Source: Acidimicrobiales bacterium (lineage in GTDB: Bacteria; Actinomycetota; Acidimicrobiia; Acidimicrobiales; SZUA-35). From it: a stretch of DNA of 64,000 nucleotides. Location: positions 74,043 through 138,042 of the forward strand of contig JAHDBV010000003.1 in NCBI GenBank assembly GCA_020630195.1, given 5' to 3'. The notes beneath the pieces are model-generated. The model worked only from the letters and a program-made list of their open reading frames with translations, was not told where the DNA came from and did no database searches. A program made the position numbers and the translations under genes. Below, in pieces: positions 2,210 through 57,936 of the stretch (the first letter of the stretch is position 1; every line of letters starts with the position of its first letter).

Positions 2210-2298
2210 GCCCGGGTGGCGAAACTGGCAGACGCAGAGGGCTTAAACCCCTCGGACCGGCAACGGTCGTGCGGGTTCGAACCCCGCCCCGGGCACCA
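2210..2298 (+). tRNA. tRNA-Leu(UAA), bldA-type isoacceptor
   Basis: Acceptor stem GCCCGGG/CCCGGGC, anticodon stem GAGGG/CCCTC with loop CT-TAA-AC, long variable arm, GGTTCGAA T-loop, encoded CCA. Confidence 0.97.
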
Positions 2299-5881: not shown

Positions 5882-6751
5882 TCAGCCGGGCCAGCGACGC
5901 CAGCGGGACGGTCGGGCGTCGAACAGGGGAAGCAGGGCGATCCCGGTCACGTGGTACGGGAACACGATGAACATCGTGGCCGCCACGCCGAGGTGCATCG
6001 CGAGGACCGCCACGATCCACCCCGTGCGCCAGCGGTCGCCGAGCAGCGCGATCGGCGCACCGAGTTCGACGGCGACCACCACGACGGCTCCGACCGTCAG
6101 GGCGGGCCCGAGGGCCAGGGCGGCGTCGGCGAGGAACGGGGTGCGTTCACCGAAGACCTCGAGCCGGGTGGCGGAGAAGGCGATGTGGTTGCCGAGCGTG
6201 TCGCCCCTCAGCCACTCGAGGCCGCCGATCCGGAGCTTGGCCACCCCGGCGAGCACGTAGGTGGCGATCGTGAGCACCGCGGCCAGCCGGAGCGGGTGGC
6301 CGTATCGCATGGCCGGCTCGTCGTCTCCGGCCGACCAGTCGCCGAGACGCCAGGCGTCGGCGGCGGGTGCGAAGGCGACGACGAGCGCGTGCAGCGCGAT
6401 GAGCGGCTCGAACCAGAGGATCTGGCCGTACGACGACCGGGCGGCGAGCAGCAGCAGGGTCGCCACGCCGAACACCGGTCCGATGACCCGATGCCACACA
6501 CCGGCGGCGACCATCGCGCCCGTCACGACCACGATGCCGACCAGGACGACGAGCACGGGGTCCATCGGCGCCCGATCGAGCCAGGCCCATGGTCCGACGC
6601 CGTCCCACTCAGCCGGGGGCCGGTCCCGGAGGCCGAGGAACACGGGAGATCGAACGGCGACGTAGATCGTGACGAACCCGGCGACGAGGATGCGCCACAA
6701 CGCCAGCCGTTCCGCCACGGCGACCGGGGTGAGGGTCAGCCGATCGCGCAT
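5882..6751 (-). CDS. HTTM-domain membrane protein
   Basis: YVLAGVAKLRIGGLEWLRG and MHLGVAATM motifs typical of HTTM / gamma-carboxylase-like TM domain. Confidence 0.7.
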   Translation of the reverse strand: MRDRLTLTPVAVAERLALWRILVAGFVTIYVAVRSPVFLGLRDRPPAEWDGVGPWAWLDRAPMDPVLVVLVGIVVVTGAMVAAGVWHRVIGPVFGVATLLLLAARSSYGQILWFEPLIALHALVVAFAPAADAWRLGDWSAGDDEPAMRYGHPLRLAAVLTIATYVLAGVAKLRIGGLEWLRGDTLGNHIAFSATRLEVFGERTPFLADAALALGPALTVGAVVVVAVELGAPIALLGDRWRTGWIVAVLAMHLGVAATMFIVFPYHVTGIALLPLFDARPSRWRRWPG

Positions 6752-7152
6752 CGGGCCAGCACTTCCCGTTCGAGTCGCTCGCCGCTGCGGAGCTCGATCG
6801 TCAGCCGCACGACCTCGACGACCTCGGCTCGTCGGAACCGCTCGTCGTCGTCGGCCACCCGGGTGGCGATCCTGGCGCACGTGGTGGCGAGCTCGCCCCG
6901 GGCCTCGCTGTCACGCAGTCGGCCCTGTGCCACCAGCGGGTCGTCGGTCTCGGCGATGAGGGCGAGTGACAGCGTGGCCGGCTGCCCGTCGGCCACGGCC
7001 TCGACGGTGCGGAAGACCGCCACGTCGCCCCGATCGTGGGCGTACATCGGATGGGTCGACAGCGGGAAGGAGTCCCGGTCGGTGACGAGCGGCGACAGCA
7101 CGAGCGCCAGCACGGCGAGCGAGAGCGCCGACCGCCATCGCCGCTCGCGCAT
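6736..7152 (-). CDS. HTTM-associated secreted/membrane protein
   Basis: N-terminal TM then DSFPLSTHPMY; overlaps HTTM gene start. Confidence 0.7.
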   Translation of the reverse strand: MRERRWRSALSLAVLALVLSPLVTDRDSFPLSTHPMYAHDRGDVAVFRTVEAVADGQPATLSLALIAETDDPLVAQGRLRDSEARGELATTCARIATRVADDDERFRRAEVVEVVRLTIELRSGERLEREVLARCAIG

Positions 7153-7161
7153 CGTCGGGTC

Positions 7162-8637
7162 TCAGGCGGCGGGCCAGAACCCCGGCAGGGGAGCGGTCAC
7201 ACCACCGGCGGCGTAGGCACGGAGACGCGTCTCGGCGGCTTCGTCGAACAGCTCGATGACGTCGAACACCGCACCCGGGCCGGCGGCCCGCAACGACTGA
7301 TCGGTCGGCGAACCCGGCTTCGGGGCGGTGGTGGTCACGGCGAGCACCCTGGCGCCGGGGTGTTTGCCCCGCAGCACCTGAGCCCGACCGAGGAGGCGCC
7401 ACAGGGTGTCCGGGCGCTGGAGTCCGGGCCGGCTCGTCGTGAAGGTGCCGGCGAGGTCGATCCACCATTCGCCGCCGTCGGCGTCGGTGGCGAGGAAGGA
7501 GAACTCGATGCCGGCACCCCGGACCTTCGGGCCCTTGCGGAGCTCGAAACCGGCCCGTTCCAACATGGCGGCCGCGAGGTCGTTGGCCCGTTTGCCGGCG
7601 TCGACGGCACGGGCCTGGGCCAGGTCCTGGCGTTCGTCGTGCACGAGGTCGTCGATCGCACGGTCGTCGCCGTCGCCGGTGGCCATCTCGAGGCGCTCGA
7701 CACGGGCCAGTTCCTCGGCGAGACGTTCCTCCGACAGCGCCACGTAGGCGGGGTCGAGGTCGTAGCCGACCCCGATCCGGCCCGTTCGGGCGGCGGCGAC
7801 GAGCGTGGTGCCGGAGCCGAGGAACGGATCGAGGACCAGGTCGCCGACGTAGGTGTAGAGGTCGATGAGTCGCCGCGGGAGTTCGACGGGGAACGGTGCG
7901 GGATGGCCGATGCGGGTGGCCGACTCGGGCGGCATGTCCCACACGTCGTTGGTGACGGCGATGAACTCGTCGTTCGTGATCGTCGAGACGTGGGGGAGCC
8001 CGGCCGCGGCCCGCTTCTTCGGTGGCAAGGCCCGCTGGAAGGCGCCCTTCGAGGCGATGATCACCCGCTCGGTGTTGTCCCGCAGCACCGGGTTCGAGGC
8101 CTTCGCGAACGAACCCCATGCGCACGACCCGCCGGCGGCCTCGGCCTTCTGCCAGATGACCTCACCCCGCAGCAACAGACCGAGGTCGTCCTGGAGGATC
8201 GTGATCACGTCGCTCGCGAGGCTGCGGTAGGGCTTGCGTCCGAGATTGGCGACGTTCACCGCGATGCGCCCACCCGGTTCGAGCACCCGGGCGCATTCCG
8301 CGAACACGTCCCGTAGGAGCTCGAGGTACTCGACATACGTGGTGGGGATCCGACCGTCGTCGCCGGTGACGGCGAGTTCGTAGTCCTTGCCGACGAAGTA
8401 GGGCGGTGAGGTCACCACGAGGGCGACCGAGTTGTCGGGCAGCTGGGCCATGTCGGTCGACGACCCGGCGAAGGCCCGACCCGTGCCGAGTGCGTCGATC
8501 AGCTCGGCCGGCCGGTTCACCGTGGTGTCATCAGACAGCGTCGGCGCCGTGAACCGTTCGTAGAACGACGAGGCGTCATGGCTCTCGCGACGGGACGTGC
8601 CGAAGCTCGTGGTGCGCGTCCCCCGCGGTCGGTCCAT
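7162..8637 (-). CDS. beta-class N4-C/N6-A DNA methyltransferase with C-terminal restriction-endonuclease-like domain
   Basis: Motif IV TSPPY precedes HPAPFP and motif I DPFLGSGTT; extra C-terminal domain of about 170 aa. Confidence 0.9.
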   Translation of the reverse strand: MDRPRGTRTTSFGTSRRESHDASSFYERFTAPTLSDDTTVNRPAELIDALGTGRAFAGSSTDMAQLPDNSVALVVTSPPYFVGKDYELAVTGDDGRIPTTYVEYLELLRDVFAECARVLEPGGRIAVNVANLGRKPYRSLASDVITILQDDLGLLLRGEVIWQKAEAAGGSCAWGSFAKASNPVLRDNTERVIIASKGAFQRALPPKKRAAAGLPHVSTITNDEFIAVTNDVWDMPPESATRIGHPAPFPVELPRRLIDLYTYVGDLVLDPFLGSGTTLVAAARTGRIGVGYDLDPAYVALSEERLAEELARVERLEMATGDGDDRAIDDLVHDERQDLAQARAVDAGKRANDLAAAMLERAGFELRKGPKVRGAGIEFSFLATDADGGEWWIDLAGTFTTSRPGLQRPDTLWRLLGRAQVLRGKHPGARVLAVTTTAPKPGSPTDQSLRAAGPGAVFDVIELFDEAAETRLRAYAAGGVTAPLPGFWPAA

Positions 8638-52248: not shown

Positions 52249-52641
52249 ATGCCGACCGCCGATCGGTACCTGACGTTGGCCGAGGGATTGGAGCTCGCCG
52301 CCGAGACGCTCGACGATCTGTGTGCGCCGCTCGCCGAGGTCGGTGACCCGCTCGTCCTCGCCGGTGGTGTGCTGCGGGACGAACTCGTGCAGCGGGTCGA
52401 CGACGATCACGGCTGGTGTGTTCGTGATGCGTCGTTGCTTCGGGACGCGGCCGCGGTGTGTCGGGATCGCGTCGTCGAGATCGCCCGGTTGGAGGTGGCC
52501 TGGGACGACCACGCCGCCGCAATGGCCCGCTATCGGCGCGGTGTCGACCTGTTCGACCGGGGTGTGCCCGGTGCGCCGCCTTCTCGTCCGGTCCGCCCGG
52601 CTCCGCCGCCGAACGTTCCGGTCTGGGCGGTGCTCACGTGA
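52249..52641 (+). CDS. small helical protein with Pro-rich tail (putative type VII substrate partner)
   Basis: GAGGGAG SD; helix-turn(LAGG)-helix; PPSRPVRPAPPP..W tail; GTGA overlap with next gene. Confidence 0.7.
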   Translation: MPTADRYLTLAEGLELAAETLDDLCAPLAEVGDPLVLAGGVLRDELVQRVDDDHGWCVRDASLLRDAAAVCRDRVVEIARLEVAWDDHAAAMARYRRGVDLFDRGVPGAPPSRPVRPAPPPNVPVWAVLT

Positions 52642-54518
52642 GCGGCTACGTCGGGTTCGACCCGGTTGCCGTCGCCCGGGTCGTCGGCTCGTTCCGCTCC
52701 GGCGCCGATGTCGCCGATGCGCTGGGCCGACAGGTCGCCAGCCTGCTCGACGAGGCCGTGCTCAGCGACGCCGTCAGTGCACCCGCCTACGCACGGGCCG
52801 ACGACTGGCGTCTGCTGGCCGCCGTGCTCGAGACCCGGATCGACCACGCGGAGGCCTTCGCGCTCTCGGCCGACCCACGGGTTCGCGACCTCGGCGCCCT
52901 CCAGCGGCGGCTGGATGGCTGGACCGGTGGCGACAACGACCCCCGACTCGACCGCCTGGTCGCCGATCGCCGCCGCGCCGTCGCCGACCTGCTCGACACC
53001 CGGGCCATCGACCCGACGCACACCCGTCGGGTCCTCGATCTCCTCGATGCCGGCGTGCCGGCCGCTGCCGCCCTCGCGGCGGTCGACCGCGTCGTGCGCA
53101 TCGAGGCCACCGCGGCGGCCCTGGCTCTGCCCCCGGCCGGGGCCGCCGCCCTCGTCGACCGACTCGACGCCACCTCGGAGGCACTCGTCGACGACGGGTT
53201 CGACGTCGTCGAGGCGACCGGCCTCGCCGCATTGCTGCACCTCACCGACGGCGACCTCACCACGGCACAGGCCGACGCCGACCGATTCGGGCTGGATCTC
53301 GCGACGGCCATCGCCATCCGGCCGATGGCCGAGGCGCTTCGCCTCGAGCTCGACGAGGTCGTGGCGCTGCGCGGCCTCACCGTGCACTTCGAGACCCTCG
53401 ACGCGGCCCGCGGCGGTGACGGCGATCTCCGGGTCTCACTCGCCGATCTCCGGTTCGTGACCGCCCACCCCGACCGCTTCAGCCCCGCCGAGGTGGAAGC
53501 GGCTCGCCGACTGCTCGACGAACCCGCCCTGCTCACCTCCCTGGACACGGGCGCGACCCACGACGACCTGTTCGAGCCGGGTCGCTTCGGCGCCACCGAC
53601 GCCGACGACGGCCTGATCTCACTCGCCGATGTGGAGGCCTTCGTGGTGCGAGCCGAGCTGGCGGCACGCCTGGCACCCCACCTCGACGCGCTCGACAACG
53701 CCGGGTTCGGCGACGCCGCCGACGGGTTCGTCTCCCGGCGGGACCTCACCGCCGCTCTGGAAGACCCGTCGTTCCCCGTCGAGGCGCGGACGGCCATCGC
53801 GACGGCGTTGGAGCGTGAGTGGTTCGACCGCACGTGGTGGGAGGAGCATCGCAACAGCCTCGCCGTGGTCAGCGCCGTGCTCGCCGGTGGGGCGATCCTG
53901 ATCCTGACCGGCGGACTGGCGGCACCTCTCGTCGTGTCGTTCACGGCGGGATTCGGTGCGGCGGCCGGCACGACGGTGCTCGTGAACACCTTGGGGGGTG
54001 ATGCCGAGCGGACCCTCGACGGCGCCTTCGCGAACGGGGTCTCGGGTGGTCTCATCACGATGTCGGTCGTCGGGCTCGGTGCGGTGTCGGCCGGGACCGG
54101 CACGGGGGCGACGTCGGGCGGGGCCGGTTCGACGGCGGCGCGGGAGGCGAAGACCGTGGCGGGGCACTGGGAACTCGGCGCCGGCATCGTCGAGGCCTCC
54201 GCCGACCTCAGCGGCGCCGATGACGTCGCCGCTGTCGCCGACACGGTCGGCACGGTCGCGGGCACGGTCGGCATGGTCGCCTCGGTCGACATCGCCGCCG
54301 ATCACCTCGACGACCTCGCGTGGGCGATCGCGGAGGACGGGCTCACACCCGACGACTGGCGGCCGGCGGCCACCGTCGGCCGGGATCTGCACTCGCTCCA
54401 CGGCGACCTCGAGGCCCTGGGTGACGCGGCCGGTCCCGGCGAACGCGCCGGCGATCCCCGGACCCCTCTCCGACGACTCGCCGACCCGGTGGTGGACGAC
54501 TGGTTCGAGGCCGGCTGA
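52638..54518 (+). CDS. putative type VII-secreted effector with EF-hand-like repeats and hydrophobic hairpin
   Basis: SGYVGFDPVAV N-terminus; DGDLRVSLADL, DDGLISLADV, ADGFVSRRDL; LAVVSAVLAGGAILILTGGLAAPLV. Confidence 0.65.
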   Translation: MSGYVGFDPVAVARVVGSFRSGADVADALGRQVASLLDEAVLSDAVSAPAYARADDWRLLAAVLETRIDHAEAFALSADPRVRDLGALQRRLDGWTGGDNDPRLDRLVADRRRAVADLLDTRAIDPTHTRRVLDLLDAGVPAAAALAAVDRVVRIEATAAALALPPAGAAALVDRLDATSEALVDDGFDVVEATGLAALLHLTDGDLTTAQADADRFGLDLATAIAIRPMAEALRLELDEVVALRGLTVHFETLDAARGGDGDLRVSLADLRFVTAHPDRFSPAEVEAARRLLDEPALLTSLDTGATHDDLFEPGRFGATDADDGLISLADVEAFVVRAELAARLAPHLDALDNAGFGDAADGFVSRRDLTAALEDPSFPVEARTAIATALEREWFDRTWWEEHRNSLAVVSAVLAGGAILILTGGLAAPLVVSFTAGFGAAAGTTVLVNTLGGDAERTLDGAFANGVSGGLITMSVVGLGAVSAGTGTGATSGGAGSTAAREAKTVAGHWELGAGIVEASADLSGADDVAAVADTVGTVAGTVGMVASVDIAADHLDDLAWAIAEDGLTPDDWRPAATVGRDLHSLHGDLEALGDAAGPGERAGDPRTPLRRLADPVVDDWFEAG

Positions 54519-54560: not shown

Positions 54561-55652
54561 GTGATCACCACCGACGAACGGCTCGATGCCGACGCTCTCG
54601 CCGAACTCGGCTGGGAACTCAAACCGGAGGGCCTCTGCCGCGACGAGCAGTGTGTGCCCCTGCCGGCCGATGCCGACACGAGCGACGGTCGGGTCGACAC
54701 CGGACTCGTCGCCGAGCGGCTGCGTCGTCCCATGGCCCTCGACACGGCCACCGGTCTGCGGGCGCTCGGCCCCGAGACCGACGGCGGTGTCCTGCCCTCG
54801 GCGACCCTGCCCGACCTCGAGCTGACCGACGTCGACGGCAATCCGTTCTCGCTCCAGGCTCTCCACGGGCGCCGGACACTGTTGGTGGCGTGGGCCTCCT
54901 GGTGAGGCTGCCGGGAGAGCCTGCCCGGGTGGCAGGCATTACACGAAGAGATCAGCCCCCTCGGTGTCGACGTCGTCACGATCTCGCTCGACCTCGACCC
55001 TGAGGCGGCACGTCCGTTCATCGACGCGGCGTCGCCGACCCATCGATCGCTGATCGACAGCCGGCACGCCACGACCGTGGCTCTCGGGTTCACGAACGTG
55101 CCGATGGCGTTGTGGGTCGACGCGGACGGCACGTTCGTCCGGCCGCCGGAGTCCGCCTCCATCGAACGCTCGGGGCTCGCCGACATGGAGATCAGCGACG
55201 AGTGGCCGGAGCGACTCGCGGCGCAGCTGCGCCTGGCCCAGTCGATCCCGTCCGACCCCGAGACCTACCGGGCGGCCATCGTCGACTGGGCCCGCCACGG
55301 TGCCGAGAGCCGGTTCGTGATGACCCCGGATCAGGTGGCCGCGGGTGCCGGCGGTCGGACCGCCGAGGAGGCGGAGGCCGCGGCGGCCTTCGAGCTCGGT
55401 CGGGCGTTGTTCGACCGGGCCGGTGGGGGACACGACGGGGTGCTCGCGGCGCGGGACTGGTGGCAGCGGGCCCACGATCTCGACCCGGACAACTGGACCT
55501 ACAAACGCCAGGCCTGGACGCTCGTGACCACGCCCGAGGGGCAGCCGTCGGATCTGATGCAGGGCCCGAACGACGTGTTCACGGGGAACTGGCTCGACGA
55601 CGTGACCGCCAACGGTGGTGGTCCGGCCTACGTGATCACGCACGACCTCTGA
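54561..55652 (+). CDS. selenocysteine-containing ResA/TlpA-like redoxin (WAxxUGC motif) with C-terminal TPR-like region
   Basis: Same-frame ORFs joined by TGA at 54903-54905: LLVAWASW-U-GCRESLPGWQALH...VVTISLD...NVP; hairpin just downstream. Confidence 0.88.
54919..54937 (+). promoter_or_regulatory. bacterial SECIS-like hairpin
   Basis: GCCTGCC-CGGGT-GGCAGGC perfect 7-bp stem starting 13 nt after the UGA. Confidence 0.7.
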
Positions 55653-55668
55653 GAATCCGGAGAACTCC

Positions 55669-56340
55669 ATGACCCAGATCGACGGCGCTCGTGCGCTCGT
55701 GCTCGGTGGATCCGGTGGCCTCGGCTCCCGGATCGCCTCCCGTCTCGTGGCCGGTGGCGCCACCGTCACCGTGGTCGGACGCGACGCCGCCCGTCTCGGC
55801 GCCGTCGCCGGTGCGCGATCCGTCGAAGCCGACCTGCGCGACCCGGCGGCGGTGTCGTCGGTGGTCGCCGCAGCCGCCGCCGACGGTCCGCTCGACGTCG
55901 TGGTCAACGCCACCGGCGTCGTCGCGTTCGGGCCCGTCGCCGAACTCAGTCCCGGCGTCGCCGAGGAGCTCTTCCTCACCAACGCCTTCATCCCGGTGTT
56001 CGCCGCCACCGCCGCCATGCCACACCTCGCGCCGGGCAGCGTCTTTGTCACGATCTCCGGCGTGATCGCCGAACAGAACCTGCCCGGTATGGCCGCCTAC
56101 GGCGCGTCGAAGGCCGCCGGGCGGTCGTTCGGCGAGGGCTTCGCACGGGAGGCCCGTCGGGCGAAGGTCCGGGTGCTCGACGCCCGCCCCGGCCACACCG
56201 AGACCGGGCTCGCCGATCGAGCGATCGCCGGCACGGCACCGGACTTCCCGGCTGGGCTCGCCGCCGACCACGTCGCTGATGTCATCGTCGCCGCCATCGG
56301 GGACGACAAGGTGAAGGACCTGCCCTCCACCGCCTTCTGA
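55669..56340 (+). CDS. SDR family oxidoreductase
   Basis: GGSGGLG, VVNATG, YGASK. Confidence 0.9.
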   Translation: MTQIDGARALVLGGSGGLGSRIASRLVAGGATVTVVGRDAARLGAVAGARSVEADLRDPAAVSSVVAAAAADGPLDVVVNATGVVAFGPVAELSPGVAEELFLTNAFIPVFAATAAMPHLAPGSVFVTISGVIAEQNLPGMAAYGASKAAGRSFGEGFAREARRAKVRVLDARPGHTETGLADRAIAGTAPDFPAGLAADHVADVIVAAIGDDKVKDLPSTAF

Positions 56341-56343
56341 GGC

Positions 56344-57399
56344 TCAGCCCTCGGGCAGGTCGGGGCCGATCGGGCGCCCGTCGACCACCTGGTCGAGATA
56401 CTCCGACATGCCCATCCCCACCCGACCGTCGCAGGTGTAGCGGGTCATGCCCTCGGTGATCCTCGTGACGAGTTGCTCACCGCCGGGTGTGGTGCGGCGG
56501 TTGCGCAGCGGGATCAACGACAGGACCTCACCGGAGACCTCGTAGGTCCGTTCGTCCGTCGTGGCGATGGCGCTCAGGCCGGTCTGGTTGCCGGCGTCGT
56601 CCCACGTCGAGGTCAGCTGCACGTCGCGGATCCGGTGGTAACGCCCACCGTCGAGCACCATGCCCGACCGCCGCGGCTCACCATCGGGCCGGGCGACGAT
56701 CGACAACATCATGGCGAAGTCGTCGCCGAACGACATCGGCAGCCAGCGGTACCACGAGAGGGCCTGCCAGAACCGTGGCCCCCACGACTTGTCCCGGAGT
56801 CCGAAGCCGTCGATCTCCATCACGACCGGCCCCTCCGGCGCGTCGATCGTCACGGACCCGACGGTGCGGGTGTGCTGCTCGTAGTGGGCCTTCGCGAACG
56901 AGGTCTCGGCGTCGGTCTCGATCTCGGACCCATCCGCCCGGACCGGCCGGCCGCCCCACATCGGCGACGCCCCGTACACGTCGAGGGCGACCGTGCACGC
57001 CACCCGGGGGTTCTCGGCGAAGGCCGTGCGGGGGTCGGCCATGGCGGCGGGATCGTCGAGCAGGGTGATGCGGCCCTCGTAGGAGACCCGGAGGTGTTCG
57101 AACGGTTCGACGACCTCGATGTGGAGCCCGCCGGCGCGCATCTCGTCGTTGGTCTCGATGGCCGGGCGTTTGTAGGTGAACCCGACGCGGCCGTCGGCGA
57201 GATACAGACAGACCGTCAACTCGGCATAGCCCTCGTGCACCCGGTTGCCGAGCCGGAACCAGCCGCCGTGGCCGCGCTCGACGTCGAACGCGTTCAGGTA
57301 CATCGATTCGTTGTAGTTCGAGGCGGCGTCGGGCTCGTGGGTGTACTCGTCGCCCGGTTCGAGCACGATCCGGATGTCATCGGCGTTCTGGTCGGCCAT
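56344..57399 (-). CDS. conserved actinobacterial beta-barrel protein (tocopherol cyclase/AttH-like fold suspected)
   Basis: YNESMY, HYEQ, GLRDKSWGPRFW, GMSEYL. Confidence 0.75.
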   Translation of the reverse strand: MADQNADDIRIVLEPGDEYTHEPDAASNYNESMYLNAFDVERGHGGWFRLGNRVHEGYAELTVCLYLADGRVGFTYKRPAIETNDEMRAGGLHIEVVEPFEHLRVSYEGRITLLDDPAAMADPRTAFAENPRVACTVALDVYGASPMWGGRPVRADGSEIETDAETSFAKAHYEQHTRTVGSVTIDAPEGPVVMEIDGFGLRDKSWGPRFWQALSWYRWLPMSFGDDFAMMLSIVARPDGEPRRSGMVLDGGRYHRIRDVQLTSTWDDAGNQTGLSAIATTDERTYEVSGEVLSLIPLRNRRTTPGGEQLVTRITEGMTRYTCDGRVGMGMSEYLDQVVDGRPIGPDLPEG

Positions 57400-57477
57400 C
57401 TCCCGAACGTAGGTGCCGGTGATGACCGACCGGAAACTCGGGTGCGCTCGGGCGATCCCGATGCGAGGGTGATCACC

Positions 57478-57936
57478 ATGGTGGATGGAGACCGTTCGTT
57501 GCCCTGGTTCTGGTCGCTCGGCTCCGCGGTCGCGCACGTGATCTTCGGACTCGGTGTGCTCTCGACGTTGTGGACCTCACACCTCCGGTCGTTCGATGCC
57601 CTGTCGCTGCGCCCGACCGACGACTTCGCCCGCGCCGTCGAGGACAGCCGGCCGGTGCTCACCATCGTGATGATGGTCGGCGTGACGGCGCTCGGGATCG
57701 TGGCCGGGGCCCGGATGGCCCGGGGCGACTGGAAGATCCCCGCCGCCCGCCTCGCACTGCTCGCCGTCGCGCCGGTGATCGTGGAGCTCACCGCTGTCGG
57801 CGTGCAGGACGGGTCGCCGAACGACCTCGATCTCGTGCCCACACACACCCTCGTCATGCTCGCCGTGCTGGTGCTGGGTGTGCTCGGATCGATCGTCGAC
57901 GACGTCATCCGGTTGCGTCGGCCCGTCGAGGCCTGA
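57478..57936 (+). CDS. four-TM membrane protein
   Basis: Four hydrophobic segments; start uncertain. Confidence 0.6.
   Translation: MVDGDRSLPWFWSLGSAVAHVIFGLGVLSTLWTSHLRSFDALSLRPTDDFARAVEDSRPVLTIVMMVGVTALGIVAGARMARGDWKIPAARLALLAVAPVIVELTAVGVQDGSPNDLDLVPTHTLVMLAVLVLGVLGSIVDDVIRLRRPVEA

Follow-up and report, generated by a model that had tools for sequence, protein, structure and literature searches.

The window considered here, a 64,000-nucleotide (nt) stretch of contig JAHDBV010000003.1 (assembly GCA_020630195.1) from an Acidimicrobiales bacterium, contains two neighbouring open reading frames (ORFs) that share one frame on the plus strand, the first of which ends in a TGA triplet at the place where a thioredoxin-fold redox protein would carry its active-site cysteine. 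This raises the question of whether the two frames are separate genes, the remains of a gene broken by mutation, or a single gene in which the UGA codon is translated, and in that case by which residue. The source genome is a metagenome-assembled genome (MAG) of the order Acidimicrobiales, 82% complete and distributed over 200 contigs. Here, we conclude that the two adjacent frames are most likely one gene for a selenocysteine (Sec)-containing thioredoxin-fold redox protein, which is what an earlier sequence-only reading of the window had proposed when it described one hidden selenoprotein gene with an in-frame UGA.

The first ORF (54561-54905) has a GTG start and ends with the TGA at 54903-54905, and the second one covers 55077-55652. 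The 171 nt separating them are open, with no in-frame stop, and reading through the TGA gives a product of 363 amino acids (aa) with the sequence ...LLVAWASW-U-GCRESLP..., where U is residue 115. The complete selenoprotein gene (54561..55652, plus strand) has 363 codons, including Sec codon 115, and terminates with TGA at 55650-55652, while its GTG start agrees with the conserved M-I-x N-terminus of the homologs. The G+C fractions of the three codon positions are 0.78/0.51/0.85 before the TGA, 0.68/0.52/0.84 in the gap and 0.72/0.53/0.92 after it, and this coding pattern is alike and continuous across all three parts. Homology also runs across the TGA, with a single high-scoring segment pair (HSP) giving 73.6% identity to the copy of a same-genus genome.

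Against the NCBIfam profile NF041054, the read-through protein scores 415.6 bits (cut-off 300, E 1.8e-124), residues 2-357 being aligned to positions 2-348 of the 354 in the profile, and the six-frame genome search returns the gene at 408.9 bits. NF041054 is the equivalog 'WAxxUGC_long', a ResA-like WAxxUGC motif-containing protein. Judged by this profile, the gene is a member of the family: it shares the W-A-x-x-U-G-C motif and the three-part architecture, and nothing of substance differs. The ResA-like WAxxUGC family that the sequence-only reading had named was correctly identified.

The motif W-A-S-W-[TGA]-G-C spans 54891-54911, and its TGA (54903..54905, plus strand), read as Sec (U115), aligns to the attacking Cys of the C-V-P-C motif of TlpA. 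A six-frame search with the NF041054 profile of the source genome and 40 relatives (41 genomes of the order) gave matches above the cut-off in 24 genomes. Each of the 30 matches above the cut-off has exactly one TGA, and one match additionally contains a TAG. From these, 28 genes with 39-74% identity to the protein of 54561-55652 were extracted, and all 28 have the TGA at the same aligned site. Further, in one-genome-per-species data 409 stretches with the family were confirmed and 77 loci were kept, and among the 83 family ORFs of these named loci the codon at the Sec site is TGA in 68 cases, TGC in 13 and TGT in two, with the Cys forms coming from five loci of Acidimicrobiia MAGs and from five Frankia loci, in which the copies stand in tandem pairs. 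A FastTree phylogeny with 90 Sec and 15 Cys rows (105 in all) requires at least five Sec/Cys changes, three of which are forced by well-supported branches; the tree is unrooted and no direction of change is claimed. Left out beforehand were two rows without the motif (L020_2 and L090_1), exact duplicates, and HSPs that did not reach 250 aa or began beyond residue 60.

A SECIS-like (Sec insertion sequence-like) hairpin (54919..54937, plus strand; GCCTGCC / CGGGU / GGCAGGC) begins 13 nt past the last base of the TGA and lies within the codons for L-P-G-W-Q. For the 28 extracted sequences, RNAalifold predicts a stem of 6 bp that joins 54920-54925 to 54931-54936, and this conserved stem encloses the loop 54926-54930 (CGGGU) at a spacer of 14 nt from the UGA. 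The sequence-only reading had described a perfect 7-bp hairpin 13 nt downstream; its position and its SECIS-like character stand with a stem of 6 bp, and its seventh pair (54919:54937) is not conserved, being formed in 11 of the 28 sequences. In the same alignment, stem cells are paired in 90.8% of cases, against 26-63% when the 3' partner is slid by 1-3 columns. The covariation score of 0.105, compared with 0.045 for shuffled alignments, was reached by 0 of 500 shuffles, a comparison in which related sequences may beat every shuffle without any structure. Compensatory changes are seen at two stem pairs: where the Leu codon changes in its third base, the Gln/Lys/Glu codon changes in its first (CTG-CAG, CTT-AAG in L044 and CTC-GAG in L036), and a synonymous double change, TTG...CAA, is found in L030 and L027.

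The clearest comparison is that between Sec and Cys forms. After removal of identical 45-nt stretches, all six stem positions are paired in every distinct Sec form but one (54 of 55) and in none of the 12 distinct Cys forms, which keep two to five of the six pairs. The comparison thus shows a conserved hairpin that only genes with UGA at the site have retained. The TGA in all 28 relatives, the stem predicted by RNAalifold, the compensatory changes and the loss of the stem in Cys forms together place the hairpin beyond chance. In E. coli fdhF, the SECIS is a hairpin that lies in the coding region close behind the UGA and has a small apical loop containing G and U. The putative SECIS described here shares these features, but it differs in its short 6-bp stem and 5-nt loop, with no bulged U evident and no match in Rfam.

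The established bacterial Sec pathway consists of SelA, SelB, SelC and SelD. In the source genome, selA (392.2 bits, cut-off 267.9) and selB (250.4 bits, cut-off 242.25) adjoin on contig C113, and selD (354.1 bits, cut-off 125) is located on contig C185 (C185:34867-35790, minus strand; locus L010). This selD gene has itself one in-frame TGA and reads H-G-A-G-U-A-C-K, a position which we take to be the Cys/Sec site of SelD, so that the selenophosphate synthetase is itself a selenoprotein in this genome. For tRNA-Sec, a BLAST search with the loci of relatives located the 5' 54 nt at the end of contig C64 (C64:1-54, minus strand), the 3' part being unassembled; these 54 nt, which take in the anticodon loop CTTCAAA, match the tRNA-Sec of the same genus (67.2 bits in G001) base for base. 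That selC goes unreported by tRNA finders in this MAG is explained by the gene being cut by the contig end. No tRNA-Sec was found beside selA, selB or selD, and a permissive ARAGORN run returned noise only. Among 13 genomes of the order that were searched, seven have a tRNA-Sec above the cut-off (63-68 bits), and all seven carry the family. Additionally, TGA is the stop codon of 297 of 331 long ORFs with G+C-rich third positions (high GC3) on the first 60 contigs; as TGA is an ordinary stop, the code is not reassigned. The machinery on which the sequence-only reading depended was, thus, found, with tRNA-Sec represented by its 5' part. For this lineage, the proportions of genomes with the family and with tRNA-Sec reported above run counter to the remark in that reading on Sec being uncommon in Actinobacteria.

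An AlphaFold2 model based on 36 sequences (predicted local distance difference test, pLDDT, 93.1; predicted template-modelling score, pTM, 0.90) shows what kind of protein is encoded. The central domain, approximately residues 76-250 (54786..55310, plus strand), is a TlpA/ResA/DsbE-like thioredoxin-fold domain according to both Pfam and structure matches, with a variable insert at about residues 199-232, and it carries U115, C117 and an N-V-P loop of the cis-Pro type. Pfam matches are confined to the core (residues 81-181; Redoxin 52.3 bits, AhpC-TSA 44 bits). In VIA structure searches the model matched the DsbE-like 3gl3 (Z 13.7, root-mean-square deviation (rmsd) 2.3, 139 residues aligned), ResA 2f9s (Z 13.0, rmsd 2.4, 136 aligned) and TlpA 1jfu (Z 11.4, rmsd 2.9, 138 aligned), and Foldseek searches of the whole model also led to ResA, DsbE and TlpA, the thioredoxin domain filling the whole-model lists. 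In the alignment to TlpA, W-A-S-W-U-.-G-C-R falls on W-A-T-W-C-V-P-C-R, which puts Sec in the place of the attacking Cys and leaves a spacer shorter by one residue. This agrees with the sequence-only reading, which had placed Sec at the position of the attacking Cys of a TlpA/ResA-like redoxin.

The N-terminal domain, approximately residues 1-75 (54561..54785, plus strand), presents a G-x-C-x4-C motif (C26 and C31) on a beta-hairpin. Both cysteines are invariant in all 36 sequences, as are W18, G24 and G70-P71, and neither the Sec nor the Cys forms have lost the pair, such that the extra two-Cys domain noticed in the sequence-only reading is real. The domain folded alone reaches a pLDDT of 91.5, and it has no Pfam or PDB match: the best VIA hit has Z 2.8 (rmsd 2.6, 48 aligned) with none of 48,161 chains at Z >= 5, the best Foldseek hit has E 0.72, a PDB profile search gave a best E of 0.13, and Pfam returned nothing at E <= 10. 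This absence of matches does not make the fold new. With clustering at 50% identity, a profile of the domain collects 1021 clusters (E <= 0.001). Of the best 150 of the 1021 representatives, 146 have G-x-C-x4-C, 38 end exactly at the residue before the Sec site, three are full-length Cys forms and 109 are other fragments; no other domain architecture was evident among these 150, most of which are truncated or fragmentary gene calls.

The C-terminal helical region, approximately residues 251-363 (55311..55649, plus strand), was delimited from the alignment, the model and a comparison with tetratricopeptide repeats (TPR), and contains a near-invariant N-W-T-Y-K-R-Q-A-W motif at residues 311-319. 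The sequence-only reading had spoken of a TPR-like C-terminus. What is left of this is at most one TPR-like helix pair at about residues 271-310 (nt 55371-55490), suggested by scores of 8-13 bits for each stretch of the family profile against single consensus-TPR repeats; the Pfam model TPR_2 gives E 0.12 and 13 bits, below its cut-off of 27. The protein has no hydrophobic segment (maximum Kyte-Doolittle 19-residue mean 1.06) and an acidic N-terminus, which suggests that it is probably soluble and cytoplasmic, unlike ResA and TlpA.

Combining these features, and extrapolating from the bacterial Sec pathway, SelB carrying Sec-tRNA(Sec) would bind the hairpin on the mRNA during translation and deliver Sec to UGA 115, and a single 363-residue protein would result. 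The selenolate of U115, at the N-terminus of the active-site helix and in place of the attacking Cys of C-x-x-C, would then attack an oxidised substrate, for instance a disulfide, sulfenate or peroxide. C117 could resolve the adduct to give a U-G-C selenenylsulfide, which a thiol system, or the C26/C31 pair of the protein itself, may reduce again. The recoding half of this scheme is supported by the comparative data, while the chemistry half is drawn by analogy with the fold. C26 and C31 might form a built-in second redox centre, or else a four-ligand metal or cluster site together with U115 and C117, although we regard such a two-centre selenoenzyme as rather unlikely. If it were true, the protein would be a new kind of selenoenzyme, with a substrate unlike those of TlpA and ResA, and not a mere Sec variant of a disulfide reductase.

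Taken as a whole, we consider it very likely that 54561-55652 is a genuine selenoprotein gene of NF041054, with the UGA recoded via the hairpin and a thioredoxin-fold oxidoreductase as its product. Several observations weigh against this conclusion. Taken alone, the hairpin is thermodynamically ordinary: its 61-nt fold has -21.8 kcal/mol and z = -0.54, and in this 71% G+C DNA an equal or better fold is obtained from 58 of 200 shuffles. No Rfam family, SECIS included, matches it at E <= 10, and the bases of the stem also encode the conserved L-P-G/V-W-Q, so that their conservation is partly at the protein level. Regarding the machinery, tRNA-Sec is incomplete in the 82%-complete assembly, ARAGORN with default settings calls none of 42 tRNAs as Sec, and the Rfam tRNA-Sec model stays below its cut-off in the genome, with the best score (46.1 against 47) falling on a different tRNA. 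No report of selenium incorporation in a family member was found. Additionally, no conserved neighbour points to a substrate, as of 213 ORFs from eight reference loci none outside the span of the gene is present in more than 14 of 104 related loci. What we say of the catalytic cycle, of a cytoplasmic location and of C26/C31 is inference only.

Three other explanations have to be set against the selenoprotein gene, and the one that survives best, although very improbable, concerns the identity of the inserted residue. Under this explanation, the UGA would be read through without selenium, by near-cognate insertion of Trp or Cys or by local reassignment, and the hairpin would act as a general read-through stimulator. 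In other systems, downstream structure is known to aid the read-through of stop codons, and for this gene the inserted residue is predicted from sequence. However, TGA serves as the main stop codon of the genome, and the site is a redox Cys position, where Sec/Cys pairs typify selenoproteins. The genome has also kept selA, selB and selD, the last with a TGA at its own Cys/Sec site, and, of the 13 genomes searched, all seven with a tRNA-Sec above the cut-off carry the family.

Even less credible, and in our judgement extremely improbable, is that there are two separate genes, one for a 114-aa protein ending at the TGA and another for a 191-aa protein starting from GTG 55077, which is how gene callers annotate the locus. 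Public protein sets are indeed rich in such pieces, as illustrated by the 38 N-domain representatives that end just before the Sec site, but the gap between the two frames is open, has the G+C pattern of coding DNA and encodes conserved elements of the thioredoxin fold, a helix and strands, and a split would run through the active site of this fold; moreover, each Cys form is one protein with a length of 350-364 aa. Finally, the chance of a nonsense pseudogene, that is, a TlpA-like gene inactivated by mutation of Cys (TGC or TGT) to TGA, is negligible: Cys-codon homologs exist (15 of the 83 ORFs), their codons are one base from TGA and tRNA-Sec is incomplete in the assembly, but the same TGA recurs in all matches above the cut-off and in every extracted gene down to 39% identity, the part downstream of it is still conserved and coding, the hairpin occurs together with TGA only, and the Sec machinery is present. 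The sequence-only reading had itself named the pseudogene as the outcome if Sec machinery were lacking and close homologs all had TGC or TGT at the site; the machinery is there, and the close homologs have TGA.

With regard to known systems, an orthologue of ResA, TlpA or DsbE was considered and rejected, because of scores far below the curated cut-offs (TlpA NF047696, 44.2 against 230; ResA NF002854, 38.4 against 170; DsbE TIGR00385, 27 against 123.15), the U-G-C motif, the missing anchor and the extra domains. The protein shares with ResA, TlpA and CcmG(DsbE) the subtype of the thioredoxin fold and the W-A-x-W-C context, with Sec here at the position of the attacking Cys. Whereas those proteins are extracytoplasmic and have C-x-x-C, the motif U-G-C is one residue shorter and no membrane anchor or signal peptide is present; the N- and C-terminal domains are likewise additions that ResA, TlpA and DsbE lack.

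In the literature, a 'Prx-like (UGC-containing)' selenoprotein has been listed since the Global Ocean Sampling (GOS) survey of 2008, where the passages concerned give 46 Sec and 855 Cys sequences and describe it as more abundant in non-marine samples. Both that protein, called Prx/TlpA-like, and the one described here are computer predictions only and have U-G-C in a thioredoxin fold, and the non-marine bias stated in those passages fits the mostly freshwater and soil Acidimicrobiia that carry the family. The passages on the UGC protein do not mention an N-terminal CxxxxC domain, which is a feature of the present gene. Matched by description and not by sequences, the UGC-motif family of the literature is probably NF041054. 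The term 'WAxxUGC' was not found in a literature search, and the main text of PMC5029168 has neither 'UGC' nor 'TlpA'. The family is, in any case, already known and computationally defined, and there is nothing new in kind.

The source genome has a second paralog (C53:2041-3150, minus strand; locus L045:2104-3153; 418.7 bits), with the motif V-V-V-A-W-A-P-Y-U-G-C, that is, W-A-P-Y instead of the W-A-S-W of the first copy, and with the hairpin CCTGCC-AGGTT-GGCAGG. Several relatives likewise have two copies of the family. The nearest named loci belong to Acidimicrobiales, Ilumatobacteraceae and Acidimicrobiia MAGs, and farther ones to Frankia isolates and to MAGs of Nitriliruptorales, Solirubrobacterales, Myxococcota/'Deltaproteobacteria' and Dormiibacterota. 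The Frankia loci (L091 and L093-L096, cultured strains) have two copies each, for example L091:3410-5071 and 6565-7716, both copies being Cys forms (TGC/TGT) in which the hairpin is lost. At L020:459-1301 (G029:C142:1764-2363), a divergent extra copy with 34% identity and the motif F-A-S-W-U-G-C, scoring below the cut-off, adjoins a regular copy. Six loci (L054, L063, L064, L072, L076 and L087), from public MAG records under the names 'Bifidobacterium breve' or 'uncultured Bifidobacterium sp.', have genes with the same TGA and 50-57% identity to the protein of 54561-55652; these record names look like mislabelled taxonomy. Apart from the family, a different redoxin with an in-frame TGA was seen in the source genome (G000:C78:41126-41434, minus strand), in which a lipoprotein-type signal (…LALALAAC-GGG) is followed by F-W-A-P-W-U-P-T-C; it is a candidate for an exported UxxC selenoprotein of the TlpA/DsbE type, and weak matches akin to it, with one TGA each, are present in many relatives.

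The surroundings of the gene vary. A short-chain dehydrogenase/reductase (SDR) gene at 55669-56340 starts 17 nt past the stop of 54561-55652, and the co-transcription of the two genes suggested by the sequence-only reading is plausible here, but the SDR is adjacent in only two of the 104 related loci (the same-genus L043 and L024), and thus is not part of the system. Upstream, separated by a gap of 42 nt, a 686-aa ORF (52458-54518, plus strand) is conserved only in the same-genus L043 (47% identity over 415 aa), and Pfam searches with it and with five alternative ORFs returned no family. The convergent neighbour at 56344-57537 (minus strand) matches DUF7065 (113.6 bits) and DUF7064 (42.3 bits) and stands beside the family in none of the 104 related loci. 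No cytochrome-maturation genes were found near the gene, and at gathering thresholds Rfam gives one match in the whole window, an ordinary tRNA gene at 2210-2295 (plus strand; RF00005, 52.4 bits).

The practical point of these results is one of annotation, as gene callers cut the gene at the UGA and the selenoproteins of the Acidimicrobiia that abound in fresh water and soil are, consequently, under-counted. The frequency of the family and of tRNA-Sec among the genomes searched implies that Sec use is common in this order. The family is widespread, with its 409 loci and the 1021 clusters of its N-terminal domain, and often represented by two paralogs per genome. Cultured Frankia strains have the Cys form only, and across the family the natural Sec/Cys pairs provide a convenient case for studying what Sec buys a thioredoxin-fold enzyme.

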